Shown here in pieces: positions 3,101 to 23,134 of a DNA stretch of 24,000 nucleotides. This DNA is from an uncultured Granulosicoccaceae bacterium (GTDB lineage Bacteria > Pseudomonadota > Gammaproteobacteria > Granulosicoccales > Granulosicoccaceae). The stretch spans positions 74,095 through 98,094 of the forward strand of contig CAZNIS010000012.1 in the NCBI GenBank assembly GCA_964573105.1, in the 5' to 3' direction. How positions within the stretch are numbered: the stretch's first letter is position 1; each line of letters opens with the position of its first letter. The position numbers and the translations under genes are program-made. The notes beneath the pieces are model-generated. The model made no database searches and was not told the origin of the DNA. It saw nothing but the letters and a program-made list of their open reading frames with translations.

Positions 3101-3965
3101 TGGCGATGACGCCATGAAAGCACTCGAAAAGCAGCTGCAGCAACAAGCGGCTGCCGATGCCGAGCGCGCCGAGCAACTCACCGCCCAGCTCAAAGCCGAA
3201 AAGGCCGCCCGCGATAAAGCCACAGCGGCACTTGAAAAGAGCGAAAAGCAGGCAGCCCAGTTGCGCGACGATTTGAAAGAGCTCTCGACCGATCACAAGA
3301 TCGCGACCAATCAGAGCAAATCACTGGAGCGTGAGACCGGCAAGCTTGAAAAAGGTCTGCAGACACTAAAAGCCGATCTGGAAAAAGCCGCCGCCACCGC
3401 TCTGCAGAACAGCAACGACGCGCAGAACAAGGCCGCCGAAGTCGATCGCTACAAGCAAATGCTGGAAGCGCGCGAAAAAGAGCTTGAGCTGATGGCCGGC
3501 AAGGTTCCGGCACTGGAGCAGGCGCTGCGCGAGAAAGAAAAAAGCGAGACTCGCCTTGAGAACGAACTCAATGGTCTGCTGTCCGAGCTGAATTCGGTCA
3601 ACGGCAAGATTGAGGCAATGCAGGGCGATATCGCCAAGCGCGAGGCCGACAACGCTGACCTGAAAGGTGACTCTCAGGCTCTGCAGGAGCAACTGCTGCA
3701 ATACCAGGAGATCGACCAGGATCTGCGCAGCCGCATTGCCAAGCTGGAGAAACAGCTGACCGAAGAGCGCAAGGCAGCCGGCAAGAATCTGCTGTCGCGC
3801 ATCATGGAACTCGAAGCCATGCTCTCCGCCGAGCGACACAAGGCCGAATCCATGCGCGACTTTAGTGAGTTCTCCGGCATGTCGACCGTGCAGACCAGCG
3901 TCAAGACTTCTGTCAACGACAGCACTGGTTCACAAACCGACAAGAAAGGCAAAAAAGCAGGCTAG
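132..3965 (+). CDS. Membrane-anchored giant coiled-coil protein (1277 aa), function unknown
   Basis: ATG 132 is preceded by GGAG at 123-126, inside the last codons of the upstream gene. aa 5-25 form a hydrophobic helix (ISQVLLILLIATVLGVLIGWIL) followed by RKIK. The remaining ~1240 aa are E/K/A/L/Q/D-rich, heptad-like, with very few Pro or aromatic residues. The C-terminal tail is Ser/Thr/Lys-rich (TSVKTSVNDSTGSQTDKKGKKAG). No Walker or other catalytic motif seen. An intrinsic terminator follows. Confidence 0.9.
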   Translation: MFYLISQVLLILLIATVLGVLIGWILRKIKALRTEEKLKERLRQAESTIDPIKQALSQAQGDIAGRDSSIAALQTKIDSMSKEVPPLKAELNSIKSDAGEQQATIASLKAMVNDKEDKLSKLADDLNQEKSSVREVDAALADANGRRIELENRLAETRVQLENNDAAAQRARADSAKLQKEINALQIKLNDAANTSESKLNELKRNLDQESKGHSDASQALKAKQAEAAGYRAEIEKLKEQLREKTTDYKLAMADRTALERQLETLQNQLDRAQEAHDRKVADLEKALAARQAISDEANRQLTAGAANQARLEGEIDRLRDKLNTGEKQNTEVASDRDGLKSEIAALQTQLEESTGAVEAQQAEKEAEIAQQRESIDALNRDLLDAKKERAAFSAEVNDAKAKLKDTEARAAGSEKERIALEKRIDSLELKMREQAKDGQQRVSELEKQLEQNAAELSRADGTIKSSEQNKQQLEERIQKLRDELNEKITDVKLAAQQRTTLEKEIERLQGEVATLQEAVKKLQAELDNSKEQHQKKISDLKTALSEQEALAADGSKAAKSLAQSEAQNKKQQSEIKAAGDKIAELTRKLDKNSNELEQANSQVAALRAESDKLSQAKAGLEKETKANAAQLADAKKQKEQFADAAGKLSEMTQREEALREKLEALQNRQQEQATDLKLAKSEADRANRELENATKNAAKAEELRRDNEKLTTARDAAESKQQQTAAQLDALQKEAKSLRADAAKLAAQSTELANEKTAGAQAKKALGAAEQKVAELADKLQAAQQQSTQDATDAKLAVSANANMERELNALRSELADLKAHYDNNRVNLEKDNTDLQKLLHGATGNLDRAKSEQSKLQAERDQLAAEVDQLATRVKSLESAAAKAGTSNAELKREREALAGANEALAKLEAQNARLSEEIQKLKEGAVDAATNAKVAGVEKSTLEREVADLKARLRDTSGSGEQKVAALQAEIDKLNKAANDNKTRADRGDDAMKALEKQLQQQAAADAERAEQLTAQLKAEKAARDKATAALEKSEKQAAQLRDDLKELSTDHKIATNQSKSLERETGKLEKGLQTLKADLEKAAATALQNSNDAQNKAAEVDRYKQMLEAREKELELMAGKVPALEQALREKEKSETRLENELNGLLSELNSVNGKIEAMQGDIAKREADNADLKGDSQALQEQLLQYQEIDQDLRSRIAKLEKQLTEERKAAGKNLLSRIMELEAMLSAERHKAESMRDFSEFSGMSTVQTSVKTSVNDSTGSQTDKKGKKAG

Positions 3966-4273: not shown

Positions 4274-6037
4274 TCAATCGGCACGCAGCACGGCCGTCGC
4301 CTCCCCCGCCTCTGCATAGACCAACTCACCATCGGCCCCGCTATTGAGTTCGGCTGCGTTCGCCTCGTCTGTGTCGATGTGCATTTCCAGGCGATATTTA
4401 TCGCTCACCCTGACCAGCACATCGCCGAACGACAGATCTCTCGGCCCACCCGTCACCGCGATCTCAACTACATCCCGATCTGCCACGCCAAACGCTGCGG
4501 CATCGTCCGGATGCATGTGAATGTGTCGCCGTGCGCAGATCAGCCCTTGCTGTAAATGCACCGTGCCGGCCGGCCCCTCCAGGGTTATCGGTGCCGAGCC
4601 TTCTACCTTACCCGAATCGCGAATCGGCGCATCGACGCCGAGCCTGAACTCATCGGTGCGGGCCACTTCTATCTGATCGACACTGCGAAGCGGGCCGAGC
4701 AGGCGCACCCCGTCAATGCGGTTGCGCGGACCGATCAGGTTCACTTTCTCTTCACAGGCATATTGCCCGGGCTGGGAGATATCCTTGTAGTGCGTCGGCT
4801 TTGCCCCTTTGCCGAATAATTTTTCAAAAGTCTCTGCAGTCAGGTGCAAATGTCTGGCGCTGACCGCGATCGGGATACCGCGCGCCGGCGTCGGTTTTGC
4901 CTGTCGCTCAACCGTGTTGGCCGACTGGCGCGCGATCATCAGTTCCTCGTCGGTCTTCACCACGACTGCTGCGACGCGCGAGCCGCGCTGCGAAATGATG
5001 GCCCGGTTGTGCTCTGTGCTGAGTTCGACATCGTGATTGGCATCGTCGTCGAGCAACAGACCCAGAAATTCCAGCCGCTGCAAAATGCGTCGCCGCATGG
5101 TGGCACTGTTTTCACCGATACCACCGGTGAACACCACGGCATCCAGGCCGCCCATCACAGCGGCGTAGCTGCCAATATACTTGCGCGCGCGATGGGCAAA
5201 AACATTGATCGCAAGCCGCGACGCATCGTGGCCCTGCTCTGCCTTGTCTTCGAGATCGCGCAGATCGTTACCGACCCCGGACAGCCCCGCAAGCCCACTT
5301 TGACGATTCAATAGATCATCGAGCTGCTGAATGGTGTAATCGCCACTGCGCAGCAGGTTGAGCATCGCACCGGCATCGATATCGCCCGCGCGGGTGCCCA
5401 TCACCAGCCCTTCAAGCGGCGTCGCCCCCATACTGGTCTCGGTGGATTTGCCGTACTCCACCGCGCAGGCACTGGCACCATTACCCAGGTGCAGCGTCAC
5501 TATGCGCAAATCTGCGATTGAGCTGCCGAGCGCCTCGGCGGCCTCACCTGCGACGTAACGATGCGAGGTGCCGTGAAAGCCAAAGCGGCGAATACGATGG
5601 CTGTTGGCAACGTCCTGTGGAATGGCATAAGTCTGTGCACGTCGTGGCATGCGGGCGTGAAATGCCGTGTCGAATACGGCGACCTGCGGCACCTTTGGCC
5701 ATACGTGCATCGCCTGTCGTATACCCTCGAGGTTAAACGGGTTATGTAGCGGCGCATCGGCTGCGCGTGCATCTATCTCGGCGATGACGGTGTCATCGAT
5801 CAATGTCGCATCGATAAATCGATCGCCACCATGTACCACCCGGTGGCCCACGACATCCACCTGGTGATCCGCGACCGCCTGACACAGATGTTCCAGCGCG
5901 GCGGCGTGAGTGGCAAACTCCCCGTCCGGATCACCAATTCGCGTGCACTTGCCGACGACGATGCGCGCATCGGTACGCAGGTCGATCAGTTGATACTTGA
6001 CACTCGAAGATCCGCAATTGACTACCAGCACATGCAT
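4274..6037 (-). CDS. ackA: Fusion protein: acetate/propionate kinase (AckA, aa 1-372) + PduL-type phosphate acyltransferase (aa ~387-587)
   Basis: N-terminal VLVVNCGSSSVKY, FHGTSHRY, FTGGIGEN and the C-terminal-type TDEELMIAR are acetate kinase hallmarks. After linker NTVERQAKPTPAR, the rest matches PduL along its length: IPIAVSARHLHL, QPGQYA, LLGPLRSVDQIEVARTD, ARRHIHMHP, LEMHIDTDEANAA. The PduL domain is roughly nt 4277-4879. Confidence 0.9.
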   Translation of the reverse strand: MHVLVVNCGSSSVKYQLIDLRTDARIVVGKCTRIGDPDGEFATHAAALEHLCQAVADHQVDVVGHRVVHGGDRFIDATLIDDTVIAEIDARAADAPLHNPFNLEGIRQAMHVWPKVPQVAVFDTAFHARMPRRAQTYAIPQDVANSHRIRRFGFHGTSHRYVAGEAAEALGSSIADLRIVTLHLGNGASACAVEYGKSTETSMGATPLEGLVMGTRAGDIDAGAMLNLLRSGDYTIQQLDDLLNRQSGLAGLSGVGNDLRDLEDKAEQGHDASRLAINVFAHRARKYIGSYAAVMGGLDAVVFTGGIGENSATMRRRILQRLEFLGLLLDDDANHDVELSTEHNRAIISQRGSRVAAVVVKTDEELMIARQSANTVERQAKPTPARGIPIAVSARHLHLTAETFEKLFGKGAKPTHYKDISQPGQYACEEKVNLIGPRNRIDGVRLLGPLRSVDQIEVARTDEFRLGVDAPIRDSGKVEGSAPITLEGPAGTVHLQQGLICARRHIHMHPDDAAAFGVADRDVVEIAVTGGPRDLSFGDVLVRVSDKYRLEMHIDTDEANAAELNSGADGELVYAEAGEATAVLRAD

Positions 6038-8730: not shown

Positions 8731-9585
8731 ATGAGCGCACTCCACCCTCACCTGCGAATGCTGATGCGCCGGGTCCTGCGACCCGTCGCAAGCCTGCTCA
8801 TGCGCAATGGCATCGCCTTCGCCGACTTTGCAGACGTCGCACGAAAGGTGTTCGTCGAGGTCGCCGAGGATGAATTCGCCATTCCCGGGCGCAAACAGTC
8901 AGTCTCGCGCGTATCAGTGCTGACCGGCATCAACCGCAAAGAGGTCAAGCGCTTGCTGGCCGAGCGAGAAGCACCGGATGCCGAACGAATTGACCAGGCA
9001 ACCACTGCCAGTAGCAATAATCGCGCAGCGCGAGTCATCAGTGCCTGGCTTCGCGAACCGGACTATCAGGATGACAAAGGCAACCCTGCGCTGCTCAGTT
9101 GGGGCAAGAACGAATCAAACGGATTCGAAAGTCTGGTCAAGCATCACAGCGGGGATATTCCGGCGCGCGCCATACTCGATGAACTCAAACGCGTCGGCGC
9201 GGTGAGCATGCCGGACGAATCGACGGTAAAACTGCTGGCCCATGGCTATGTGCCCAGCGCCAGCAACGACGAACTATTGAAAATCTCGGCGCAGAGTGCG
9301 GGTGATCTGCTCGACACCATCGAGCACAATCTGGCTGCCAACGAGCCACTGTCACGCCTGCAGCTCAGCGTTGCCTACGATGATCTGCCAGCCCAATCGG
9401 TCGAGCTCTTCAGGCAACTGAGCACAGAAAAGGGACGCGAGCTACTCGTGTACCTGGATCAGTTTCTGGCCACTCAGGATCGTGGCAGCAATCCGTCGGT
9501 CAAGGGCAGCGGGCGTTACCGCGCCGGGCTTGGCGTGTACTACTTTGAAGAAGATCTTGGCGAGGACCATGCTGATGGCAATTAA
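8731..9585 (+). CDS. Cytoplasmic protein with an N-terminal helix-turn-helix-like segment, uncharacterised family (putative regulator)
   Basis: 284-aa ORF with no signal peptide. The segment QSVSRVSVLTGINRKEVKRLL looks like an HTH. The N-terminal pattern LRPVASLLMRNGIAFADFADVARKVFVEVAEDEFAIPGRKQ resembles conserved hypothetical proteobacterial proteins, but I cannot name the family with certainty. Confidence 0.75.
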   Translation: MSALHPHLRMLMRRVLRPVASLLMRNGIAFADFADVARKVFVEVAEDEFAIPGRKQSVSRVSVLTGINRKEVKRLLAEREAPDAERIDQATTASSNNRAARVISAWLREPDYQDDKGNPALLSWGKNESNGFESLVKHHSGDIPARAILDELKRVGAVSMPDESTVKLLAHGYVPSASNDELLKISAQSAGDLLDTIEHNLAANEPLSRLQLSVAYDDLPAQSVELFRQLSTEKGRELLVYLDQFLATQDRGSNPSVKGSGRYRAGLGVYYFEEDLGEDHADGN

Positions 9586-10951
9586 TCACTGTGGTCGCAG
9601 GTGCGCAGTCTGGGTGCTGGCATTGTTTGCGATCGCGCTGCATAGCTGTTCCGGAGGCATCTCCGGCACCGGCGATGGCGGCCCGATCATCGTGGTCACC
9701 AACACAGACCTCATCGAGTCGAGTTCAACTATCGGCACGGGTGACGGTGGCATCGACGGAACTACCGATGGCACCACCGACGGCACCGCGCAGACAGACA
9801 GCCCCGCTTCGCTAACGCTGCCAGTGCAAATCTACTATGCGTTTCCGGCACCACTGATCGCACTGCCCGACAGCGCAACGCCTGACACCTCGGTGTACGC
9901 TGCACTGCGCGAGCAATTCACCGCAGCGACAGATATTTTATTGGACGCACAAGTCTGGGTAGATCTCGTCAGCGCGCAACTGCCAGACACCACGAGTGCA
10001 TGCTTCGCCGATACCAGCTGCATCAGCAGTCAGCTCAGTACCGGTTATCTCTACTCCGCAGACACGCTGCAGAACGATTTAACGCGCCGGCTGAATTCGA
10101 TCGACCCGCTGTTACCGGAGGATACGCAACTGGCGTTTGAAAACTCGATTCGCGAACAGCTCAATGCCAACCTGAACACCGTGATTGACATTGGCGTCGA
10201 CAACGCCCTGTCTGTCACCGGCGATCAGCACAACATTCGACTGCAGTCAGGTGATGCCACGCTCGATCTGACCTGGCGCCTGGACAATGGGGTCACAGTC
10301 ATTCGTTACACCACACCCGCGATCACCCTGCAGGCCAGGCACCAAACAGATGCCAACCGTTTCACTCTGCGCTTCTACAACAGACAATCCACCTCTGTGC
10401 TCGCAGCTGCTTTTGAATCGGTTGACGGTGGCAGGCTGTTTGAAGGAGATCTGCATCGGGCAGGTAACACGCCTATGCAACATTACTTTCGCGGGTTCAG
10501 TAGCCAGCAGGGTGGTACGCTGATTGCGCGCGATCCAAACCGCGACGCCACACAATCTCTGTCACGCGAGCGGTATTTGTCCAGCGGACAGTTAACTTCA
10601 CAGCAAGTGTGCGATCGTTGCGAGGTGTCGGAGAACTGGCTGGAACAACTCGATAGCGCCACGCCTGATGACGCACAATACGTAGCCTTTGAAGAACGGT
10701 TTGGCGGATTCGAGCAGAGCATTGCCGATGACATCTCGCTGAGCAATCTCGACGCAACCATTGACGAATGGGTAGTCACCAACAACGAAAGTGAGCAGTC
10801 ACCCAATCTCAATGCCGCCTGCCACGGACAACGCGTTGGCGACGCGCTACGTAATATCTGCTGGACGCTCGCGCTCGATCCGGAGCAGGCCCGCACCTAT
10901 CGCGAGCAGCTTCAACCCAATGGCGACTTGAGCTATCAGTTACTTGATTAA
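9569..10951 (+). CDS. Orphan lipoprotein (~460 aa), no recognisable domain
   Basis: In-frame ATGs at 9569 and 9575, with GAGG at 9562-9565, give MLMAINHCGRRCAVWVLALFAIALHSC-SGG (signal peptide plus lipobox-like LHSC). The start overlaps the upstream gene's 3' end by 17 nt. The ORF-track start 9482 would add a non-signal extension inside the upstream gene. Gly/Asp/Thr-rich linker (GTGDGGIDGTTDGTTDGT). Confidence 0.7.
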   Translation: MLMAINHCGRRCAVWVLALFAIALHSCSGGISGTGDGGPIIVVTNTDLIESSSTIGTGDGGIDGTTDGTTDGTAQTDSPASLTLPVQIYYAFPAPLIALPDSATPDTSVYAALREQFTAATDILLDAQVWVDLVSAQLPDTTSACFADTSCISSQLSTGYLYSADTLQNDLTRRLNSIDPLLPEDTQLAFENSIREQLNANLNTVIDIGVDNALSVTGDQHNIRLQSGDATLDLTWRLDNGVTVIRYTTPAITLQARHQTDANRFTLRFYNRQSTSVLAAAFESVDGGRLFEGDLHRAGNTPMQHYFRGFSSQQGGTLIARDPNRDATQSLSRERYLSSGQLTSQQVCDRCEVSENWLEQLDSATPDDAQYVAFEERFGGFEQSIADDISLSNLDATIDEWVVTNNESEQSPNLNAACHGQRVGDALRNICWTLALDPEQARTYREQLQPNGDLSYQLLD

Positions 10952-11807: not shown

Positions 11808-12605
11808 TCAGTAGCGAAAGTGTTTGATCTGCTCGCCCTTGCTGCCGATTTCCATCATGGCCTCGATACCGATACTCAGGTGAATGTGCGACCAGTCCTG
11901 CGTGACGAGCTTGTCTGAGTGCTCCATCTTGACGCCATCCGGTGTGATCGGCACATCTGACACTAGCAACAGCGCACCGCGTGCGATCTGATTCGCATGC
12001 CCTGCGATGAAAATGGTAGCCGTCTCCATATCGATACCGATGCAGGTCATTTCATGGAGTTTGCGGTGAAATTCGCGATCGTGCTCCCAGACCCGTCGAT
12101 TCGAGGTGTAGATGACTCCGGTACGATATTCATACCCCCGGTCGGCGACTTTATCAGAGACAAACTTATGCAACTTAAAAGACGGCAACGCCGGTACCTT
12201 CGGGTGCAGGTAGTCGTCGCTTGTGCCCTCGCCTCTGATCGCGGCGATCGGCAGAATGAAATTACCAATCTCGGTCGAGGTCTTCAGCCCGCCACATTTT
12301 CCAAGAAACAATACACCGGCCGGATGAATCGCGGTCAGCAGATCCATAACAGTCGCCGCGTTGGCCGAACCGATACCAAAATTGATGATGGTGATGCCCG
12401 CCGAATTGCTGGCCGCCTGCATCGGTCGCCCCTCGCCATGAATCTCGCACTCGAAGCGGGCAGCGAATTGACGAACATAGTCGTAAAAGTTGGTCAGCAG
12501 AATATAGCGACCGAACTTCTCCAGTGGCATACCGGTGTAGCGCGGCAGCCAGTTGGCGGTGATTTCGGCTTTACTTAAGGTTTGTTGATCGTCCTGTAAC
12601 TGCAT
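11808..12605 (-). CDS. AMP nucleosidase-like protein, catalytic (PNP_UDP_1 fold) domain only
   Basis: GGAGG (revcomp of 12616-12620) lies 10 nt before ATG 12605. ILLTNFYDYVRQFA, FGIGSANAATVMDLL, FLGKCGGL, AIRGEGTSDDY and GIDMETATIF resemble the C-terminal half of Amn / nucleoside phosphorylase family I. At 265 aa it lacks the ~200-aa Amn N-terminal regulatory domain. Confidence 0.65.
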   Translation of the reverse strand: MQLQDDQQTLSKAEITANWLPRYTGMPLEKFGRYILLTNFYDYVRQFAARFECEIHGEGRPMQAASNSAGITIINFGIGSANAATVMDLLTAIHPAGVLFLGKCGGLKTSTEIGNFILPIAAIRGEGTSDDYLHPKVPALPSFKLHKFVSDKVADRGYEYRTGVIYTSNRRVWEHDREFHRKLHEMTCIGIDMETATIFIAGHANQIARGALLLVSDVPITPDGVKMEHSDKLVTQDWSHIHLSIGIEAMMEIGSKGEQIKHFRY

Positions 12606-12733: not shown

Positions 12734-14251
12734 TCAACGCGGGTTTAATTGTCCGTAGAGTCGTGCAAATCGCACACCCAGTTCACGCAGGCCGACAGCT
12801 GAAAAGTGTGACCCGTCAGTGTCGTCTTCACGCGCGGGCAGATCGGTGGCCTGCACGCAACCACTCAGCGGATCCGCATCGCGGTTCAGTGCCATCAAGT
12901 GGCGATTCACCCCCACTGCACGACGGGTTTCACCACAGATAAACACTGTCCGTCCCGGTGAGGCCCACGGCTCTGAACGAAAGTTTTTTATCAGTGCCTG
13001 CAATTTGATCGGATAGTAATTTCGGTAGTCGGGAGAGCTTGCAGGAATACCACTGGCCAGTGGGTCCGAGGTACCGTGGAACTGCCAGTCGGTCTCGCCC
13101 TGATGCCACAGAATGCCATCAATGGTGTCGCGATGGGGCAGCGCATCGAGTGCCGCCTGCACCTTATCGCTCACCTCGCGATAAAACGGGCCATGGCGAT
13201 CCCAGTGTGATATTCCCTTGCCCGGTGCAGAGGCTACGATAAAGGCCGGCACCCTGCCCGAGCCGGACTGAGCCAGCGCTTTGCCAAAGTGAAACGCGAA
13301 ATTGTTATAGGGACGGCGGTTCGGATTCTCCTTCGAAAAATTTCCCGGATGTCCGTTGCGATCCCATACCTGATGCAGATCTGCCGTTTGCCAGCCGGCA
13401 CTGGTCCAGGCAAAGACGCGCTGATCCGGCTGATCGAGGCCCGGGTCGTAGGCGGTCATCGAACCCAGCACGTTCGATTGCCCGGTCACCAGTATCACGT
13501 CGGTAATGTCGGCGAGCGTCAGCGCTTTTTGCGCTCCAGCGCCGCCGACGGCTTGCGAGACGCTGCGATCGGAGGTGACGAGACAGGTCTTGCCGCGCTG
13601 CCAGCCGATGCCGTCGCCGTCTGGATCCATATCAGCCCGCTCACACACGGCGACGCCCGCATCGCTGGCACACAGCGCGTTATCAACCCAGCCAATCCCG
13701 TCGCGATCCGGGTCCTGGCGTGGCGAGGTACAGCGTCGCAGACCGGGTGCGGTAACGCGAGCAGGCTCCGTCGCCGACGGCGTCACCGGTTTATTGGTGG
13801 TGCGCTGCACCATGCAACTGGCGTTGTTCTCCCAGCCGTAGCCATCGCCGTCCGGATCGCTGTCATCGCGTGTACAAGGCGGGTGCACACCTGTGGTGGC
13901 GGGTGCGGGTTTTTGATCCGCAACAGCGCCAGACGGCATTCGGCAGGAACGATTGTCTTCCCAGCCCCAGCCATCGCCGTCCGGGTCAGAGTTGGTCTGG
14001 CAGGTCGCGTGTGTCGGGGCCGAGTCCGCTGCACCCCCTGCGACAATACACGACGCCTGATTTTCCCAGCCCCAGCCATCGCCATCCGGATCAGAGGCCG
14101 CCGACTGGCAGACTGGGGTGGCGGCAGCGGCCGCCTCGATAAACGGTCCGATAACAAGACCCGCCAGCAAGGCGAGTGCGCTTCGTGAAAGAACGACATT
14201 GGGGATTGGCAAAGCGATTATTCCGATGCGCTGACGGGGACATCCCGTCAC
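12734..14251 (-). CDS. Secreted SASA/SGNH-type esterase (sialate O-acetylesterase-like), paralog 1, with five N-terminal Cys-bracketed DPDGDG repeats
   Basis: The ORF-track start is GTG 14251. An in-frame TTG 13 codons downstream (TTG CCA ATC, nt ~14212) is also possible. Signal peptide ALALLAGLVIGPFIEAAAAA. Esterase domain motifs: VILVTGQSNVLG, ILWHQGETDW, FICGET, DGSHF. Confidence 0.8.
   Translation of the reverse strand: MTGCPRQRIGIIALPIPNVVLSRSALALLAGLVIGPFIEAAAAATPVCQSAASDPDGDGWGWENQASCIVAGGAADSAPTHATCQTNSDPDGDGWGWEDNRSCRMPSGAVADQKPAPATTGVHPPCTRDDSDPDGDGYGWENNASCMVQRTTNKPVTPSATEPARVTAPGLRRCTSPRQDPDRDGIGWVDNALCASDAGVAVCERADMDPDGDGIGWQRGKTCLVTSDRSVSQAVGGAGAQKALTLADITDVILVTGQSNVLGSMTAYDPGLDQPDQRVFAWTSAGWQTADLHQVWDRNGHPGNFSKENPNRRPYNNFAFHFGKALAQSGSGRVPAFIVASAPGKGISHWDRHGPFYREVSDKVQAALDALPHRDTIDGILWHQGETDWQFHGTSDPLASGIPASSPDYRNYYPIKLQALIKNFRSEPWASPGRTVFICGETRRAVGVNRHLMALNRDADPLSGCVQATDLPAREDDTDGSHFSAVGLRELGVRFARLYGQLNPR
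13583..14110 (-). repeat. Five protein-level repeats C-x4-5-DPD[GR]DG-[WYI]-GW-x-[NDR]-x3-C within paralog 1
   Basis: Cys pairs at aa 48/68, 84/103, 126/146, 174/194 and 203/223. Each brackets DPDGDGWGWEN, DPDGDGWGWED, DPDGDGYGWEN, DPDRDGIGWVD or DPDGDGIGWQR. The plus strand shows the recurring CCAGCC..ATCGCC.TCCGGATC pattern near 13600, 13690, 13832, 13962 and 14066. Confidence 0.85.
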
Positions 14252-14307
14252 TCAGAATACCTGACAAATTGCCTGAATTGCTTTGATGCGCCTGAAGGGA
14301 ACTTGAA

Positions 14308-14323
14308 CAACGGTAAACCGTTG
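14308..14323. promoter_or_regulatory. Perfect 7-2-7 palindrome CAACGGT-AA-ACCGTTG in the paralog 2 / paralog 1 spacer
   Basis: Located 6 nt downstream of the paralog 2 stop (14330) and ~57-72 nt upstream of the paralog 1 start. The 2-nt loop is too tight for a normal RNA hairpin, so a dimeric protein-binding site is more likely. Confidence 0.3.
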
Positions 14324-14329
14324 ACCCAA

Positions 14330-15343
14330 TCAGTCAACGAGGTTGAGATAAGCCTCAGCGTAGCTTTGACCGAGCGCTCGCAACCCCTCGGCTGTAAAGT
14401 GCACATATTCTGGCGCATCGTAAGTTGGCAAACCCTCACCACTGACGCAGGCCGTCCACGGATCGTTGTCGGTATTGAGCGCCATCAATCGGCTGTTAAT
14501 CGGTGCCTGCGCGGTCTCACCACAGATGAATGGCTTGCCGTTGTCAAACCAGTTTTCGCTGCGGAAATTAGAGATCAGGGCATACAGCTTATCGCTGTAA
14601 TATTCGCTGCCAACCATGACACCACCAAGGTCTGGATCGCTCGAGCCATTGATCACCCAGTCGGTCTCGCCCTGATGCCACAGAATGCCGTCAAAGGTGC
14701 TCTTGTGCGGCAACTCATTAAGTGCTGCCACCGCCTTGTTGCTGACCTGATTATAGAAATAGGTGCCATAGTCCCAGTGACTGATGCCCTCACCAGGTGC
14801 CGTCGCCAGCACAATGCCGACCACCCGATCGCTGTCGGCAGCCACCAGCTGTTTGCCAAAATGCAGGCCGAAGTTGTTGTGCGGATCGCCGTTCGGGTCG
14901 GTGCGCGGATTCCAGCCAAGATCCCACACCTGACGCAGACTGGCGCGCTGCCAGCCCTCGTCTGTCCAGGCATAGAAACGATCGACTGGCGCATCCAGCA
15001 CAGGATCGAAGTCAGTTTCAGCGCCGAGTGCATTTGACTGCCCGGTAATCAGCACCAGATCGGTGATACCGGATGGCATATCGACGACTGGTTTCGAATC
15101 GGGATCTTCGGGATCGGTGTTGTCACCCCCAACGACGATGACGGTATTACCGTCTTCCTCATCGCCACCCTGTGCCGCCGATGTATCGACCTCGGGCTCA
15201 GGTTGCGGCTGATTGCCAGACTCACCGCCAACCACAATGACAGTGCGGTCCTCGTCGCCATCGCCAGACGCGCACGCGGTTAGCACGGCCAACGCAACGG
15301 TTGTCAACGCTATACGCCAAGTCTGACTGAGTCTACCTTTCAC
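14330..15343 (-). CDS. SASA/SGNH-type esterase lipoprotein, paralog 2
   Basis: GTG start 15343 with GGGGG ~10 nt upstream. Signal plus lipobox: ALAVLTAC-ASG. Acidic linker with two TVIVVGG strands. Motifs: LVLITGQSNALG, ILWHQGETDW, FICGET, EYVHF. Confidence 0.85.
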   Translation of the reverse strand: MKGRLSQTWRIALTTVALAVLTACASGDGDEDRTVIVVGGESGNQPQPEPEVDTSAAQGGDEEDGNTVIVVGGDNTDPEDPDSKPVVDMPSGITDLVLITGQSNALGAETDFDPVLDAPVDRFYAWTDEGWQRASLRQVWDLGWNPRTDPNGDPHNNFGLHFGKQLVAADSDRVVGIVLATAPGEGISHWDYGTYFYNQVSNKAVAALNELPHKSTFDGILWHQGETDWVINGSSDPDLGGVMVGSEYYSDKLYALISNFRSENWFDNGKPFICGETAQAPINSRLMALNTDNDPWTACVSGEGLPTYDAPEYVHFTAEGLRALGQSYAEAYLNLVD

Positions 15344-15625
15344 CTAAACGAACCCCCGGCCTGTATCTGGACACCAAGTGTCTCAATTGCGTTACACACC
15401 GACCGCGAGCCGTTTCAGGTTTCAGCGTTTTATGAGCACTGGCATGGCGAGTACTGTCGACCACGCCCGATTTGGCAGTCAGGAGTTAACAAGCCAGTAT
15501 TCGGCGTCCCCCGGGGGTTCTGAAGACGCATTTCAGGTTGTTCGCGAACTTATCCGCAGTATCCGGGCGCGTCAGGCGACGCGCCAGGGCCTTCCCGTCA
15601 GGAAATCACGAGATCGCAGGCAGTT

Positions 15626-16618
15626 TCAGGATCCGGGCGGACGAGGCTGCATGGTGATGTACTCCCAGGCGTAATTGCTGCCGATTCTGCGCAGCCCTTC
15701 AGCCGAAAAGTGGATGCCATCACCCAGCGAAGGATAGCCTTCGCCCTCAACACAGGCGGTCCAGTCATCGCCATCGGTATTGAGCCGATTGAGACGGTTA
15801 TTGACCGGCAGGCCAATCGTCTCGCCGCAGATGAAGGGCTTTTCGTAGCCGTACCAGCTCTCGTTGCGAAAGTTGGTGATCAGCTGGTTGAGCTTGGTGG
15901 TGTAGTAGTCCGAATCGGCCGCATCGGACTCGCCCTGATGCCACAGGATTCCGTCGAATGAGGATTTGTGCGGTATCTGATTCAAGGCGTTCAGCGCCTT
16001 GTTGCGTATCTGACCAAAGAACTCACCATCGAGATCCCAGTGCGCGATTTCGCGCCCGGGCGCGGTTATCAGCACGATGGCGACACGGCGATCCGTCCGG
16101 TTTTCCGCGATGGTCTTGCCAAAGTGCATGCCGAAGTTATTGAACGGCTCGCGATCGGGATCCGAGTCAGAGAAATTGCCCGGATGGGTCAGATCCCAGA
16201 ATTGGTGCAAATCGGCGATGCGCCAGCCCTGATCGGTGAACGCATAGACACGACTGTTGGGCCGGTCCAGATCCTCATCGAAGGTGGTTGACGCACCCAG
16301 CGCATTTGACTGCCCGGTGATCATCACAAGATCGGTGATCAAATCCAGCCGAACATCATCGGGAATGAAGAAGTCGTCCGGCTCGAATGGTTGTTCGGCC
16401 GGTTCAGGTTCCGGCGTGCCCTGGTCGGGGTTATCGCCGCCGGCACCACCGACGACCACCACCGTACCGGAGTCTTCGTCATCGTCTTCTGCGCTACCGC
16501 CGGCACAGCCATGCAAAAACAGCGCGGCCAGCAACAGCAGTACGCCAACGCATCTATGGACGCGCCATTCTGACAATCGAGTGTCATTTATTATCGGGAA
16601 ACTTTGCACTAGAGCCAT
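15626..16618 (-). CDS. SASA/SGNH-type esterase lipoprotein, paralog 3
   Basis: Start uncertain: ORF-track TTG 16687, ATG 16618 (chosen) or TTG 16576; none has a clear SD. Signal plus lipobox: VLLLLAALFLHGC-AGG. Acidic linker with TVVVVGG. Motifs: LVMITGQSNALG, ILWHQGESD, FICGET, DGIHF. Confidence 0.8.
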   Translation of the reverse strand: MALVQSFPIINDTRLSEWRVHRCVGVLLLLAALFLHGCAGGSAEDDDEDSGTVVVVGGAGGDNPDQGTPEPEPAEQPFEPDDFFIPDDVRLDLITDLVMITGQSNALGASTTFDEDLDRPNSRVYAFTDQGWRIADLHQFWDLTHPGNFSDSDPDREPFNNFGMHFGKTIAENRTDRRVAIVLITAPGREIAHWDLDGEFFGQIRNKALNALNQIPHKSSFDGILWHQGESDAADSDYYTTKLNQLITNFRNESWYGYEKPFICGETIGLPVNNRLNRLNTDGDDWTACVEGEGYPSLGDGIHFSAEGLRRIGSNYAWEYITMQPRPPGS

Positions 16619-16791
16619 CCGTTTGCAGCCATGCAGCTGGCTGCACAGCGCTATCAGCAGGGACTCTCTTTGAACTAGTGAGAGCAAGGGGGTTCAGTAA
16701 AAACCCGCATTATATGCAAGCCCCACCTGCAAAACCGGCGAATTTTCCTAACTGTAGGCTAGTGCACTCTTAAGATTTTCACTCATCCTGG

Positions 16792-16818
16792 CAGGCGCGG
16801 CCAAGTGCCGCGCGCCTG
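16792..16818 (-). terminator. GC-rich hairpin downstream of paralog 4 (weak terminator candidate)
   Basis: Perfect 8-bp stem CAGGCGCG (16792-16799) / CGCGCCTG (16811-16818) with an 11-nt loop, 16 nt after the stop at 16834. No U-run follows on the minus strand, so it is not a canonical intrinsic terminator. Confidence 0.3.
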
Positions 16819-16833
16819 GATTGCCTTGCGCGC

Positions 16834-17916
16834 TCAACGTGGAAGTTGCCACCACATCTGATTGTACAAATCGGCATAGCGCTGCCCCATGGTGCGCAGG
16901 GCGGTGGCCAGAAAGTGGGCGCCATCTTCGTGCGTAGGCAGCCCGGCGGCAGCGATACAGCCGGTCCACGGGTCCCCATCGTGGTTTAACGCCATCAGCT
17001 GCGCGTTCACCGCAAACTGCGACGTTTCACCGCAGATGAAGGGTCGGTCAGCCGAGAACCAGCTCTCTGCGCGAAAATTGGCAACCAGCGAATTCAACGC
17101 CTGCGCGTAGGCTTCACCACCATTTGCATCGGATTCACCCTGATGCCACAGAATGCCATCCAGCTGGTTTTTGGTCGGATGTTCAGCCAGCGCGGCACGC
17201 ACCTTTCGATCGACCGCGCGATAGAAATCGCCATCCCGCTGCCAGTGAGCAATCGGCTGCCCGGGCGCAGTTGCCAACACAAATCCAAACACTCTGTTAG
17301 TGCCAGCGGTCAGTTGAACCATTCGCTTGCCATAGTGCAACGCCAGATTGTTCGACGGCGGTTCACTGCCATCATTGCCCGGATGCCAGCCCAGATCCCA
17401 GATCTGGTGCAAGTCGGCAATCTGCCAGCCACGATCGGTATAGGCCAGTACTCTCGAATCCGGGGAATCAAGGCCCGCATCAAAGCTCGTCCCCGCACCC
17501 AGCGCATTCGACTGTCCGGTCAACAGCACCAGGTCGGTGATATCTTCAAGCTGATGTGGCCCATTGATCGGCGTTGACCAAACCACAGGCTCTGTCACTT
17601 CGGGCTCGGCAGGTGTCTCGATAGTGAACTCGTCCTGCTCCAGCGTTTCCGCCGGTGGTTCTGTCTGCGCCAGCGCTGCATCGGGTTCTGCGGCGGCCGG
17701 GTCATTGACGGGCTCGAAAGCATCGTCATCAACCTGAGGCAGACCGGTAGCGGCGGTTTCAGGTTCGCTTGCCGACGGCTGGGTGACAGAGGGCGTGTCC
17801 GCCGGTGGGGTGACAGGCTCAAGTGAGGCACTGCTGCTGCAGCCGGCGATCACAGCCGCCAGTGATACCGCCGCCAGCAGTCGACCCGATCTGGTCAATT
17901 CAAAGCCAACCCACAC
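16834..17916 (-). CDS. SASA/SGNH-type esterase lipoprotein, paralog 4
   Basis: GTG 17916 with GGGAGAG (revcomp of 17925-17931) 7 nt upstream. Signal plus lipobox: LAAVIAGC-SSS. ~100-aa Pro/Glu/Ala/Thr-rich linker. Motifs: LVLLTGQSNALG, ILWHQGESD, FICGET, DGAHF. Confidence 0.85.
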   Translation of the reverse strand: MWVGFELTRSGRLLAAVSLAAVIAGCSSSASLEPVTPPADTPSVTQPSASEPETAATGLPQVDDDAFEPVNDPAAAEPDAALAQTEPPAETLEQDEFTIETPAEPEVTEPVVWSTPINGPHQLEDITDLVLLTGQSNALGAGTSFDAGLDSPDSRVLAYTDRGWQIADLHQIWDLGWHPGNDGSEPPSNNLALHYGKRMVQLTAGTNRVFGFVLATAPGQPIAHWQRDGDFYRAVDRKVRAALAEHPTKNQLDGILWHQGESDANGGEAYAQALNSLVANFRAESWFSADRPFICGETSQFAVNAQLMALNHDGDPWTGCIAAAGLPTHEDGAHFLATALRTMGQRYADLYNQMWWQLPR

Positions 17917-18002: not shown

Positions 18003-19379
18003 TCAGCTCGCCAGCTGCCAGTGCGCGAAGGTTTGATCGATCGCTTTTGCTGCGATCGAAAACAGCTCATCGATCTCGGTTTTGCTGATGATCAGCGGCG
18101 GCGAGAGGATCATCGAGTCGCCAACCGCGCGCATTACAAGACCGTTGGATGAGGCAAAATCGCGGCACAACACACCGATGTCTCCCTCTTTCTCGAACGG
18201 CTGATTGGTGCCCTTGTTCGGCACCAGCTGAATCGCGCCCAGCATCCCGAGACCACGCACCTGACCCACAAACGGGTGCTCTGCCAGCTCTGCCAGCCGC
18301 TTTTGAAACCACGGTGCCGTCGAAGACTCAACGGTTTCGACGATCTTCTCGCGGCGCATCAGTTTTAGGTTAGCAATCGCTGCAGCGGCGCAGGCCGGAT
18401 GCCCCGAATAGGTGTAGCCGTGATTGAAGTCACCGCCCTGCTCCAGACCTTCGGCCACGTGATCGCTGACGACCACGCCGCCGATCGGCAAATAGCCGGA
18501 TGACAATCCCTTCGCCACTGCCATCAGATCGGGCTTGATGTCGAGCGTCTGACTGCCAAACCAGCGGCCTGTGCGGCCAAAGCCACAGATCACTTCATCG
18601 GCGACCAGCAAAATATTGTGCTCGCGACAGATGCGCTGAATCTCCGGCCAGTAGGTGTCCGGTGGCACAATCACACCGCCCGCGCCCTGAATCGGCTCGG
18701 CGATAAAGGCCGCCACCCGATCCGCCCCCAGTTGCGCGATGCGCTCCTCCAGCGCACGCGCGGCACGCAGGCCAAAGTCGGCTTCGTTCTCGTCGTAGCC
18801 GTTGGCAAACCAGTGCGGCTGCATGATGTGTTCGATATCGGGGATCGGCAGCCCGCCCTGCTTGTGCATCGGCTTCATGCCACCGAGACTCGCGCCGGCC
18901 ATGGTGCTGCCGTGGTAAGCGTTCTCGCGGCTGATGATGACTTTTTTATCCGGCTTGCCGACCGACGCCCAGTAGTGGCGCACCAGCCGCACCACGGTAT
19001 CGTTGGCCTCGGACCCGGAGCTGCAAAAAAACGTGCGATTAAGCCCGTCAGGTGTGAGCTCGGCCAGCAGCGCCGACAACTCGATCACCGGTGGATGGGA
19101 GGTCTGGAAAAAGGTGTTGTAGTAAGGCAGTTGCTCCATCTGCGCGTAGGCTGCATCGAGAATCTCGCGCTGCCCATAGCCTGCGTTCACGCACCACAAC
19201 CCGGCCATGCCATCGAGGTAGCGCACGCCGTCAGAATCGGTTAGATAAACCCCGGAGGCCTCTTTGATGACACGCGTGCCCTTTTTATTCAGCGCACGGG
19301 TATCGGTAAAGGGGTGCAAGTGATGGCTGGCATCCAGTGCTTGCAGTTTTTCGGTCGGCAGGTTGTGCAGACTACCCAT
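18003..19379 (-). CDS. Class-III PLP-dependent aminotransferase (omega-amino acid / putrescine:pyruvate transaminase-like)
   Basis: 458 aa. ATG 19379 with GGAG 8 nt upstream. HHLHPFTD, GMAGLWCVNAGYG, YYNTFFQTSHPP, the LVADEVICGFGRTG Asp motif and the AVAKGLSSGYLPIGG Schiff-base Lys region resemble SpuC / beta-alanine-pyruvate transaminase. The substrate cannot be called from sequence. Confidence 0.85.
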   Translation of the reverse strand: MGSLHNLPTEKLQALDASHHLHPFTDTRALNKKGTRVIKEASGVYLTDSDGVRYLDGMAGLWCVNAGYGQREILDAAYAQMEQLPYYNTFFQTSHPPVIELSALLAELTPDGLNRTFFCSSGSEANDTVVRLVRHYWASVGKPDKKVIISRENAYHGSTMAGASLGGMKPMHKQGGLPIPDIEHIMQPHWFANGYDENEADFGLRAARALEERIAQLGADRVAAFIAEPIQGAGGVIVPPDTYWPEIQRICREHNILLVADEVICGFGRTGRWFGSQTLDIKPDLMAVAKGLSSGYLPIGGVVVSDHVAEGLEQGGDFNHGYTYSGHPACAAAAIANLKLMRREKIVETVESSTAPWFQKRLAELAEHPFVGQVRGLGMLGAIQLVPNKGTNQPFEKEGDIGVLCRDFASSNGLVMRAVGDSMILSPPLIISKTEIDELFSIAAKAIDQTFAHWQLAS

Positions 19380-21830: not shown

Positions 21831-22436
21831 CTAATCCCAGATTAGACGAGGATCGAGCGAAAGCGCTGAAAGCATGGTAAATATTACCGTTGCCCCGAAC
21901 GCCATCACACCAATGCCCGGGTCAATCTGGGCGAACGAGCCGATCTGCACCAGCGCCGCCAGGATCGCCACCACAAACACATCGATCATCGACCAGCGGC
22001 CGATGAATTCCGTCACCCGAAACAGCCGGGCGCGGTCGAGTCTGCGCTCCTCTGATCCGCGCTGAATCGAGATCAGCAGCCAGGAGATGGCGAAAAATTT
22101 CAGCAATGGCACCACGATACTGGCGACAAACACCACCAGCGCCACCGGATAGGATTTCAGCTCCACCAGTACCAGGATGCCGCTCAAGATCGTGTTCGGC
22201 TCCGACACACCAAATACTGAGGTGTGCATAATCGGATAGAAATTGGCAGGAAAATAGGCGATCACCCCGGCGATCAGCCAGGCCCAGGATCGCTGCACAC
22301 TCAACGGTTTGCGCGAATGCAGCACCGACTGGCACAGCGAGCAGCGCGACACCGCGAACAGATTGTGGGTCTCCAACTCAGACAAATTCCCACAGGCTTC
22401 GCACGACACCAGGCCGCTCTCGCGCGCACTCTTCAT
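21831..22436 (-). CDS. pqiA: PqiA-domain membrane protein, second half-size gene
   Basis: 201 aa. CEACG...CSLCQ zinc-ribbon-like pair followed by 4 hydrophobic helices. Start ATG 22434-22436 overlaps the upstream stop (ATGA overlap, 22433-22436). Confidence 0.8.
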   Translation of the reverse strand: MKSARESGLVSCEACGNLSELETHNLFAVSRCSLCQSVLHSRKPLSVQRSWAWLIAGVIAYFPANFYPIMHTSVFGVSEPNTILSGILVLVELKSYPVALVVFVASIVVPLLKFFAISWLLISIQRGSEERRLDRARLFRVTEFIGRWSMIDVFVVAILAALVQIGSFAQIDPGIGVMAFGATVIFTMLSALSLDPRLIWD

Positions 22437-23134
22437 TCGCGAGCACCGCGCGCCTGGCTGATGTTATCCCACAGCGTGTGGTTGTCAATCATCTGTGTGG
22501 CCGCCACTGACAGCAGATTCAGTATCGCAAACGCCCAGAACGATAGCCCCAGCTCAATGCTCGCCATGGTCGCCAGTTTCACCAGCGAGACGATGGTGCC
22601 GAGGAAATAGATCTCCATCATGCTCCACGGGGACATCCAGACAATCGCGCGAAACACGCGCTCGATGCCCTGCCAGTGCTGACCCAATCGCAGTGGCAGC
22701 AATATGTACAACAGGCCCGACATGCGCAGCAGCGGAATCGCCAGAATAAACGCCAGACACAGCGCCGCCAGCAGCCACATGCCCTCGGCCGACAGCGCAA
22801 ACACTGCCGATATCACCGAAATACTCTGATGATTTCCCGACACGCTGATGGTCAGAAACGGAAACGCATTGGCGATGATAAACATCACCAGCGCCGCCAC
22901 CGTAAACGCCAGCGATCGATCGATACTGTTTTCCTTGTGCGCGTAGAGCCATGCCTCACAGCGCGCACACCGCGCGCGCTCACCCGGTTGCAACACCGTT
23001 TTTCGATGCAGCAGATCGCACTGGTGGCAAGCCACCAGATCCGGCGCTACAGACATCGACTTAACAGGATCTTCGGAAACGTGTGTTGTCATCACAGAGG
23101 GGTAGTTCCGACCCGGATTGGTTGTCTGATCCAC
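22433..23134 (-). CDS. pqiA: PqiA-domain membrane protein, first half-size gene
   Basis: CHQCD...CARCE pair followed by hydrophobic helices. The ORF-track start is GTG 23134. In-frame ATGs at 23092 and 23056 are alternatives, so the start is uncertain. Confidence 0.8.
   Translation of the reverse strand: MDQTTNPGRNYPSVMTTHVSEDPVKSMSVAPDLVACHQCDLLHRKTVLQPGERARCARCEAWLYAHKENSIDRSLAFTVAALVMFIIANAFPFLTISVSGNHQSISVISAVFALSAEGMWLLAALCLAFILAIPLLRMSGLLYILLPLRLGQHWQGIERVFRAIVWMSPWSMMEIYFLGTIVSLVKLATMASIELGLSFWAFAILNLLSVAATQMIDNHTLWDNISQARGARE

Follow-up and report, generated by a model that had tools for sequence, protein, structure and literature searches.

What do four neighbouring copies of one hydrolase family do for a single bacterium, and why have all four been kept? 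This question is raised by an array of four consecutive minus-strand genes, here called paralogs 1 to 4, in a 24,000-nucleotide stretch from an uncultured Granulosicoccaceae bacterium (contig CAZNIS010000012.1). The whole stretch is referred to as the window, and all coordinates are those of the window. We give a probability of roughly 60% to the reading that the products are serine O-acetylesterases of the SASA (PF03629) branch of the SGNH hydrolases, diverged long ago and each exported on its own, which would deacetylate extracellular glycans of the host surface or biofilm. Confidence in any specific substrate is low.

The four genes and all their parts described below lie on the minus strand. 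Paralog 1 (12734-14251) has a longest open reading frame (ORF) of 505 aa and combines a Sec-type signal, five CBM10-like modules and a SASA core; translation probably begins close to 14194 or still further downstream, and the database form of the protein (P0121) has 478 aa. Paralog 2 (14330-15343) encodes 337 aa and paralog 4 (16834-17916) encodes 360 aa, both lipoproteins by motif, with an acidic linker in the former and a Pro/Glu/Ala-rich linker in the latter preceding the SASA core. Paralog 3 (15626-16687), likewise with an acidic linker and a SASA core, has 353 aa when read from the TTG at 16687. The ATG at 16618 (MALVQS...), which gives about 330 aa, is the more probable start because it is kept in the orthologues of two contigs from metagenome-assembled genomes (MAGs), L001 and L002. 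A sequence-only reading of this DNA had described four genes with cores identical at about half of their positions and separated by 78, 282 and 146 or 215 bp, and these values proved correct. The C-terminal core common to all four proteins spans about 240-260 aa with about 85 invariant alignment columns, including TGQSN, DGILWHQGE, FICGET and the C-terminal HF. Pairwise core identity is 49-57% for protein and 56-62% for DNA, and the longest exact DNA run between paralogs is 33 nt. The motifs picked out earlier, namely TGQSN[AV]LG, DGILWHQGE[ST]D, FICGET and a C-terminal DGSHF, EYVHF, DGIHF or DGAHF, were found in the sequences. The ITD motif is also present, but the invariance claimed for its Leu does not hold, since paralog 3 reads ITDLVMITGQSN with Met at that position.

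The GC content of the array, overall and at third codon positions, matches that of the neighbouring genes. Separate promoters had been proposed from the spacers; a promoter and terminator consensus scan detected nothing promoter-like in the spacers, and its number of sites fell below that of shuffled controls, so the proposal is neither supported nor refuted. A TATAAT sequence was seen by eye about 90 bp upstream of the paralog 3 ATG. Scans of the window for tRNA genes and Rfam families gave no matches.

All four paralogs matched the Pfam SASA profile at 70-95 bits (E 2.5e-19 to 8.7e-27; 2.5e-19, 3.1e-23 and 9.8e-25 for paralogs 1, 2 and 3, respectively), against a gathering cut-off of 24.8 bits. 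This similarity is far beyond chance and covers the profile from position 3 to 224-226 of 226 in each protein, in agreement with the family proposed earlier. No NCBIfam family matched any of the four. We consider them almost certainly SASA-family serine esterases. The cores extend over 12737-13519 in paralog 1 (Ser259 at 13475-13477, WHQGETD at 13088-13108, Asp479 at 12815-12817 and His482 at 12806-12808), 14333-15076 in paralog 2 (Ser103 at 15035-15037, Glu312 at 14408-14410 and His315 at 14399-14401), 15629-16351 in paralog 3 (Ser127 at 16307-16309, Asp323 at 15719-15721 and His326 at 15710-15712), and 16837-17553 in paralog 4 (Ser136 at 17509-17511, Asp331 at 16924-16926 and His334 at 16915-16917). 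The block I Ser of GQSN is present in all four; it is invariant in 103 of 103 homologues and in 140 of 142 locus copies, the other two being alignment gaps. The block V His is also present in all four and is kept in 141 of the 142 locus copies, with a gap in the remaining one; the 103 homologues likewise show no variation at this His, and the motif blocks are conserved among them. The acid-x-x-His block reads DGSH, EYVH, DGIH and DGAH in paralogs 1 to 4, with Asp or Glu in each. The Glu noted earlier in paralog 2 is real and is the commonest residue at this position across the P2 clade, indicating a clade character and not decay.

Solved structures point to the same fold. By sequence, the best match in the PDB was 1zmb (E 2.4e-7), followed by 2apj (E 5e-5) and NanS (3pt5, E 0.0019). 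The aligned stretches comprised the QGESD block and, for 1zmb (DGIH) and 2apj (DNLH), the D-x-x-H block through the block V His; for GQSN, the alignments to 2apj and NanS were weak stretches below the threshold. Motifs of solved SASA-fold proteins line up with the block I Ser and block V His, as the sequence-only reading had proposed. For paralog 4, an AlphaFold2 model based on 103 homologues had a predicted local distance difference test score (pLDDT) mostly above 90 in the core. Foldseek placed 2apj and 1zmb at the top of the PDB matches to this model (E about 1e-13) and NanS next (1e-9), followed at lower ranks by mammalian sialic-acid esterases and then other SGNH carbohydrate esterases. 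The confident core and the SASA-fold top matches support an alpha/beta/alpha SGNH fold. Every core also contains two invariant Cys residues (FIC-GET ... C), which probably form a disulfide outside the cytoplasm.

The N-terminal regions differ between the paralogs. Signal peptides and lipoboxes were assessed from motifs alone, with the lipobox pattern [LVI][ASTVI][GAS]C. Paralog 1 carries a hydrophobic region followed by AAA|ATP, a Sec-type signal by this standard. Canonical lipoboxes are seen in paralog 2 (LTAC, 15272-15283) and paralog 4 (IAGC, 17839-17850); that of paralog 3 (LHGC, 16505-16516) is atypical, with His at -2, and its orthologues carry LTAC and LTGC at this position. Motif inspection thus agrees with a predicted signal peptide on paralog 1 and predicted lipoproteins for paralogs 2-4, with the atypical lipobox of paralog 3 as a reservation. 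Most homologues are likewise lipoproteins.

Five DPDGDG repeats had been reported in paralog 1; there are five, one of which reads DPDRDG. By their sequence they appear to be CBM10-like modules, which had not been recognised before. The modules (13571-14110) are each bounded by Cys, following the pattern C-x5-8-DPD[GR]DG-[WYI]GW-x5-C, with repeats at aa 54, 89, 132, 180 and 209 and ten Cys within aa 48-223. They matched Pfam CBM_10 in three stretches at 61.7 bits (E 8.9e-17; gathering cut-off 23 bits), and only their GWGWE..SC half aligned to the solved CBM10 structure 1e8r (E 0.017). In an AlphaFold2 model of paralog 1 (mean pLDDT 86.5), each module was predicted as a single beta-hairpin with pLDDT of about 80-90, joined by low-confidence linkers. 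A tandem-repeat finder detected no DNA-level repeats in paralog 1, implying that the five modules have diverged at the DNA level. The combination of CBM_10 and SASA is common, occurring in dozens of homologues.

The stalks of paralogs 2-4 are of two kinds. The Pro/Glu/Ala-rich linker of paralog 4 (17554-17838, about 95 aa) was modelled without secondary structure at pLDDT 53-66. The linkers of paralogs 2 and 3 are very acidic and contain a T-V-[IV]-V-V-G-G motif just after the lipobox Cys, twice in paralog 2 (VIVVGG, 15125-15142 and 15224-15241) and once in paralog 3 (VVVVGG, 16445-16462). Despite the otherwise fast evolution of the linkers, the orthologues in L001 and L002 keep this motif, which may serve in sorting or strand docking. 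The signal and linker of paralog 3 also gave a weak match to the NCBIfam 'lipo-invert tail' entry NF058595 (E 0.005, below the cut-off).

We then asked how widely the array is distributed. Relatives were sought in one genome per GTDB species with two short peptide patterns, a scope that could bias the taxonomic picture. The scan gave 129 relatives, and the best 80 of the 129, representing 77 distinct loci, were kept. Among these best 80 matches, all but a few were in MAGs labelled Granulosicoccaceae; the exceptions were a MAG labelled Robiginitomaculum and a pair of genomes whose only label is Chromatiales, of which one derives from the bryozoan Bugula neritina. A look-up of the exact paralog 4 sequence of the window in a contig index gave no record. 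In an exhaustive HMMER search, 1.84 billion representative proteins yielded 82 clusters of 50% identity at E <= 1e-30 and 307 at E <= 1e-10, indicating that the subfamily is small.

The L001 and L002 contigs contain the same four genes in the same order, with core identities of 78-93%. Their flanking genes are mostly 91-98% identical to those of the window, indicating a close relationship; DUF1223 and the ORF beside it are lower, at 60-78%. The array occupies one slot in about 25 loci, in the order PqiABC, class-III aminotransferase, array, usually a PNP-family gene, and DUF1223. The aminotransferase gene (18003-19379, minus strand) marks the upstream boundary and adjoins the array in every related locus reaching that side, and the PNP_UDP_1-family gene (11808-12605, minus strand) marks the downstream boundary in most related loci, a few of which have DUF1223 next. 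A functional link of the array to these two flanking genes was considered and set aside, the relation being one of conserved position with no functional rationale. Copy number in the slot is one in L056, two in L029, three in L003, L006, L015, L032 and L064, four in the window, L027 and L047, five in L004, L020 and L065, and six in L011 and L017. The relative orientation of the array members has changed in L003, L006 and L007. Each MAG has further singleton copies outside the slot, bringing the total per well-sampled assembly to at least 5-9 (for example 9 in CALISD, 8 in CALGKA and 8 in CAYLZS), figures that are lower bounds. The array is therefore not peculiar to this genome; it is a copy-number-variable feature conserved across Granulosicoccaceae, which the sequence-only reading had missed.

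Two further observations concern the edges of the subfamily. The copy in the MAG labelled Robiginitomaculum (L055, JALZUP010000262.1, 3939-4733) shares 47-53% identity and lies on a 7.4-kb contig; Robiginitomaculum is an alphaproteobacterium reported from the same algal habitat, and the copy reflects either horizontal transfer or a binning error. Five proteins of 1021-5548 aa (P0250, P0252, P0257, P0286 and P0305) have the SASA core in an N-terminal or internal position, an architecture different from that of the window genes.

In a neighbour-joining tree, copies grouped by array position into a first-position clade (containing paralog 4), a P2 clade and a last-position clade (containing paralog 1). 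This grouping shows that the duplications predate the divergence of the sampled lineages; the paralog clades are common to many Granulosicoccaceae MAGs and are older than genera. Paralog 3 of the window and its L001 and L002 orthologues form a long branch beside the P2 clade, and two clades found in larger arrays are missing from the window. The pattern is one of birth-and-death evolution at a fixed locus. The ratio of nonsynonymous to synonymous substitution rates (dN/dS) against the L001 and L002 orthologues was 0.02-0.11 for the cores and 0.13-0.37 for the linkers, rough values because dS was saturated (>1), and strong purifying constraint on the cores is clear. Some features are clade-specific: only the P1 and P2 clades have an insertion of about 13-19 aa immediately behind block III, and in paralog 1 Val replaces the Ala next to the catalytic Ser. 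The constraint, the sharing of clades across MAGs and these conserved features agree with the earlier suggestion that the copies are retained and not decaying.

On the genomic context, the sequence-only reading had pointed out the lack of glycoside hydrolase, TonB receptor, sialic-acid and transporter genes around the array. The 24-kb window likewise proved to have no genes for glycoside hydrolases, TonB receptors, sugar transporters or sialic-acid functions, and none for polysaccharide lyases or sulfatases; the absence of glycoside hydrolase and sugar transporter neighbours means that the context gives no substrate. Six singleton copies that were examined lay mostly among unrelated genes, including mfd and genes for a DegP-like protease, ABC transporters, aminotransferases and oxidoreductases. 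Two genes from a singleton SASA copy, the Bugula-associated Chromatiales genome encodes a protein with DUF5722 and CBM_10-like domains (L013, 6090-7922, minus strand), suggesting that CBM10-like modules decorate several secreted proteins of the lineage. The Granulosicoccaceae are a marine lineage reported from macroalgae. Granulosicoccus belongs to the core epiphytes of kelp and of macroalgae of the green, brown and red groups; it ranks with the most abundant and most persistent bacteria of seaweeds, kelp included, and its lifestyle there is poorly understood (PMC9238374, PMC10233909). A literature search for Granulosicoccus or Granulosicoccaceae together with acetylesterase or carbohydrate esterase found nothing relevant, and one for fucoidan deacetylase together with SGNH found only an alginate review.

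We propose the following mechanism. By family chemistry, nucleophilic attack would come from the GQSN Ser, the His of [D/E]-x-x-H-F would be the base, and the oxyanion hole would be formed by the GQSN and WHQGE[ST]D blocks. Paralog 1, to judge from its signal motif, would probably be released through Sec, and attachment to insoluble glycan could come from its five small CBM10-like modules. For paralogs 2-4 a lipid anchor is probable, most likely in the outer membrane because none has Asp at +2, and their flexible acidic or Pro-rich stalks would hold the catalytic domains off the membrane. The enzymes would strip O-acetyl groups from extracellular acetylated glycans of the host or biofilm. Substrates or sites of action would differ between the paralog clades, and the clade-specific loops may reflect the different substrates.

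Several points weigh against this proposal. Identity to characterised enzymes is only 18-23%. Across the 142 locus copies, the residue three positions before the block V His is Asp in 84, Glu in 20 and another residue in about 34, so the acid is not universal in the subfamily and the triad geometry is not guaranteed in every copy. The predicted export signals are motif assignments, with the paralog 3 lipobox atypical, and the dN/dS values carry the uncertainty of saturated dS. Neither the window genes nor the mostly unrelated singleton neighbourhoods point to a substrate, and the macroalgal-host link comes from MAG labels and the literature and not from window metadata.

A broader view, which we hold only tentatively, is that this compact SASA subfamily is largely confined to Granulosicoccaceae and is a niche-defining trait of the members living on macroalgal surfaces, supplying surface- or glycan-tethered deacetylases tuned to different O-acetylated host polymers. 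The candidate polymers would be O-acetylated host wall or mucus, for example acetylated fucoidan. Acetate harvest or glycan unmasking would then proceed without accompanying glycoside hydrolases, and copy number would track host range. The array slot may be a birth-and-death hotspot accounting for part of the amplification of the subfamily. The expanded, copy-number-variable set of exported esterases without partner glycosidases would point to 'acetate stripping' or glycan unmasking in the seaweed lifestyle and would supply candidate enzymes for deacetylating marine polysaccharides. The enzyme family is already known, and its enzymology here would be an ordinary extension of the well-known SASA/SGNH family; new are the CBM10-like repeats, the family-wide copy-number-variable locus, the small subfamily that is largely confined to the lineage and expanded in it, and the ancient paralogs under purifying selection.

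The deacetylation of extracellular host or biofilm glycans has to be weighed against other uses of the same chemistry. Periplasm-facing lipoproteins might instead remodel glycans of the bacterium's own envelope or matrix (O-acetylated peptidoglycan, lipopolysaccharide, capsule, or an acetylated exopolysaccharide such as bacterial alginate or cellulose). This reading would suit the three lipoproteins among the four paralogs and the lack of catabolic partner genes nearby, and bacterial alginate production on kelp surfaces has been discussed (PMC9238374). We regard it as unlikely, since no acetyltransferase (PatA/B, AlgI/J/F/X or WssF-I) or exopolysaccharide genes adjoin the array or the examined singletons, the high number of diverged copies per genome and the variation from one to six copies in the slot fit a housekeeping role poorly, and many members bear CBM10-like modules, which suggest that the polymer is external and insoluble. 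An Ape-type activity on peptidoglycan in particular was set aside because there are no Pat genes and the family differs. It is improbable, too, that the proteins are strict sialate O-acetylesterases of the NanS or SIAE type, removing 9-O- or 4-O-acetyl groups from the sialic acids of an animal host for sialidases and the Nan pathway. NCBI names some homologues 'sialate O-acetylesterase', but these names are automatic Pfam transfers; NanS and mammalian SIAE are among the structural matches, but the NanS match is weak, at 18% identity, and worse than those to the CE6-type proteins 1zmb and 2apj. One related genome comes from a bryozoan associate, although the literature places the genus mainly on macroalgae, and no nan gene, sialidase or sialic-acid transporter was found in the window or beside the examined singleton copies. 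No macroalga is known to make sialic acids.

Small acetylated or other short-chain esters from the host, such as algal metabolites or lipids, could also be the substrates, serving acetate harvest or detoxification. SGNH hydrolases are often promiscuous, and Foldseek also finds aryl esterases and acyltransferases, although at lower rank than the carbohydrate esterases that make up the best matches. A gene for an acetate kinase-PduL fusion lies 6.7 kb away and is syntenic in some relatives, a proximity that reflects general regional synteny and not a specific linkage; the CBM10-like modules, moreover, suggest polymer binding, and we consider the small-ester explanation improbable as well. Nothing was found in favour of an assembly artefact or a set of decaying redundant duplicates, which the sequence-only reading had brought up, and this explanation is effectively refuted: the DNA divergence of the paralogs and the short exact run between them, together with the same gene order on two independent contigs, rule out the former, and the latter is ruled out by intact reading frames, invariant catalytic residues and core dN/dS of at most 0.11. 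The extracellular glycan deacetylases proposed above thus remain the favoured explanation.

Some other genes of the window deserve mention. The fusion gene (4274-6037, minus strand) encodes a single 587-aa protein in which acetate kinase (PF00871) and a PduL-type phosphotransacylase (PF06130) are joined. L032 and L038 have this gene in synteny close to the esterase array, and a link to esterase-released acetate would be speculative. An ORF of 1277 aa (132-3965, plus strand) occupies a region where A exceeds T to an extreme degree (AT skew 0.3-0.5). In Pfam it matches coiled-coil families alone, such as Myosin_tail and Filament, weakly and below the threshold, and from its sequence it looks like a giant coiled-coil protein. 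PqiA (21831-23134, minus strand) is split into two adjacent ORFs of 201 and 233 aa with one PqiA domain each and a 4 bp overlap, as it is in relatives. A 489-aa ORF (9482-10951, plus strand) has no Pfam match and has a counterpart of 60% identity beside DUF1223 in L001; about 100 bp at its start are shared with the end of the DUF6502 gene.

Among known systems, the closest are two CE6-type proteins, 1zmb, a putative acetylxylan esterase of Clostridium acetobutylicum, and 2apj, Arabidopsis At4g34215. Both belong to PF03629 like the window proteins, share the contiguous single-domain SGNH/SASA fold of about 230-250 aa, and line up with the window cores at the GQSN block I, QGE-x-D and the block V D-x-x-H. 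They are the best structural matches (E about 1e-13, target template modelling score 0.6-0.8), although identity is only 20-23%. Unlike 1zmb and 2apj, the window proteins have the extra signatures ITD...TGQSN and FICGET and the invariant Cys pair, and they are predicted to be exported, with lipoprotein stalks or CBM10-like modules. Neither 1zmb nor 2apj is known to have a well-defined natural substrate. Xylan-utilisation genes would be expected near an acetylxylan esterase of carbohydrate esterase family 6 (CE6); none lies near the window array, and no GH10, GH11, GH43, GH67, GH115 or other glycoside hydrolase was found in the 24-kb window or beside the six examined singletons.

NanS (YjhS, the E. 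coli 9-O-acetyl-N-acetylneuraminate esterase, 3pt5) and mammalian SIAE (8f9o-8f9r) also share the SASA fold, with the GQSN Ser and the QGE block aligned. Their matches are weaker (sequence E 0.0019, 14-18% identity), the NanS match spans 79 residues, and both carry extra structural elements, with lower template modelling scores and aligned lengths above 300. Neither nan genes (nanA/T/K/E) nor a sialidase gene was found in the window. CE6 and CE20 share a GQSN-type block I and the SGNH mechanism (PMC12313940). Like the window proteins, the CE20 enzymes (XacXaeA; Fl8CE20_II, 9h4u) have the SASA Pfam domain and a GQSN block I, with Gln in place of the Asn of SGNH, but their SGNH domain is interrupted by an ancillary (X448) domain and their block V reads DxH (PMC12313940). 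The window cores, by contrast, are uninterrupted over about 240 aa and have [D/E]-x-x-H, and 9h4u matches only a fragment of 60-118 residues. They thus resemble the CE6/NanS type and not CE20, and a CE20 assignment was set aside for lack of the insert domain. The paralog 1 modules, finally, can be compared with the CBM10 of Cellvibrio japonicus Xyn10A (1e8r/1qld), with which they share the GWGWE-x3-SC half and the bounding Cys residues. They are shorter than the Xyn10A module, and an acidic DPDGDG loop, which may bind calcium, replaces its N-terminal aromatic half.

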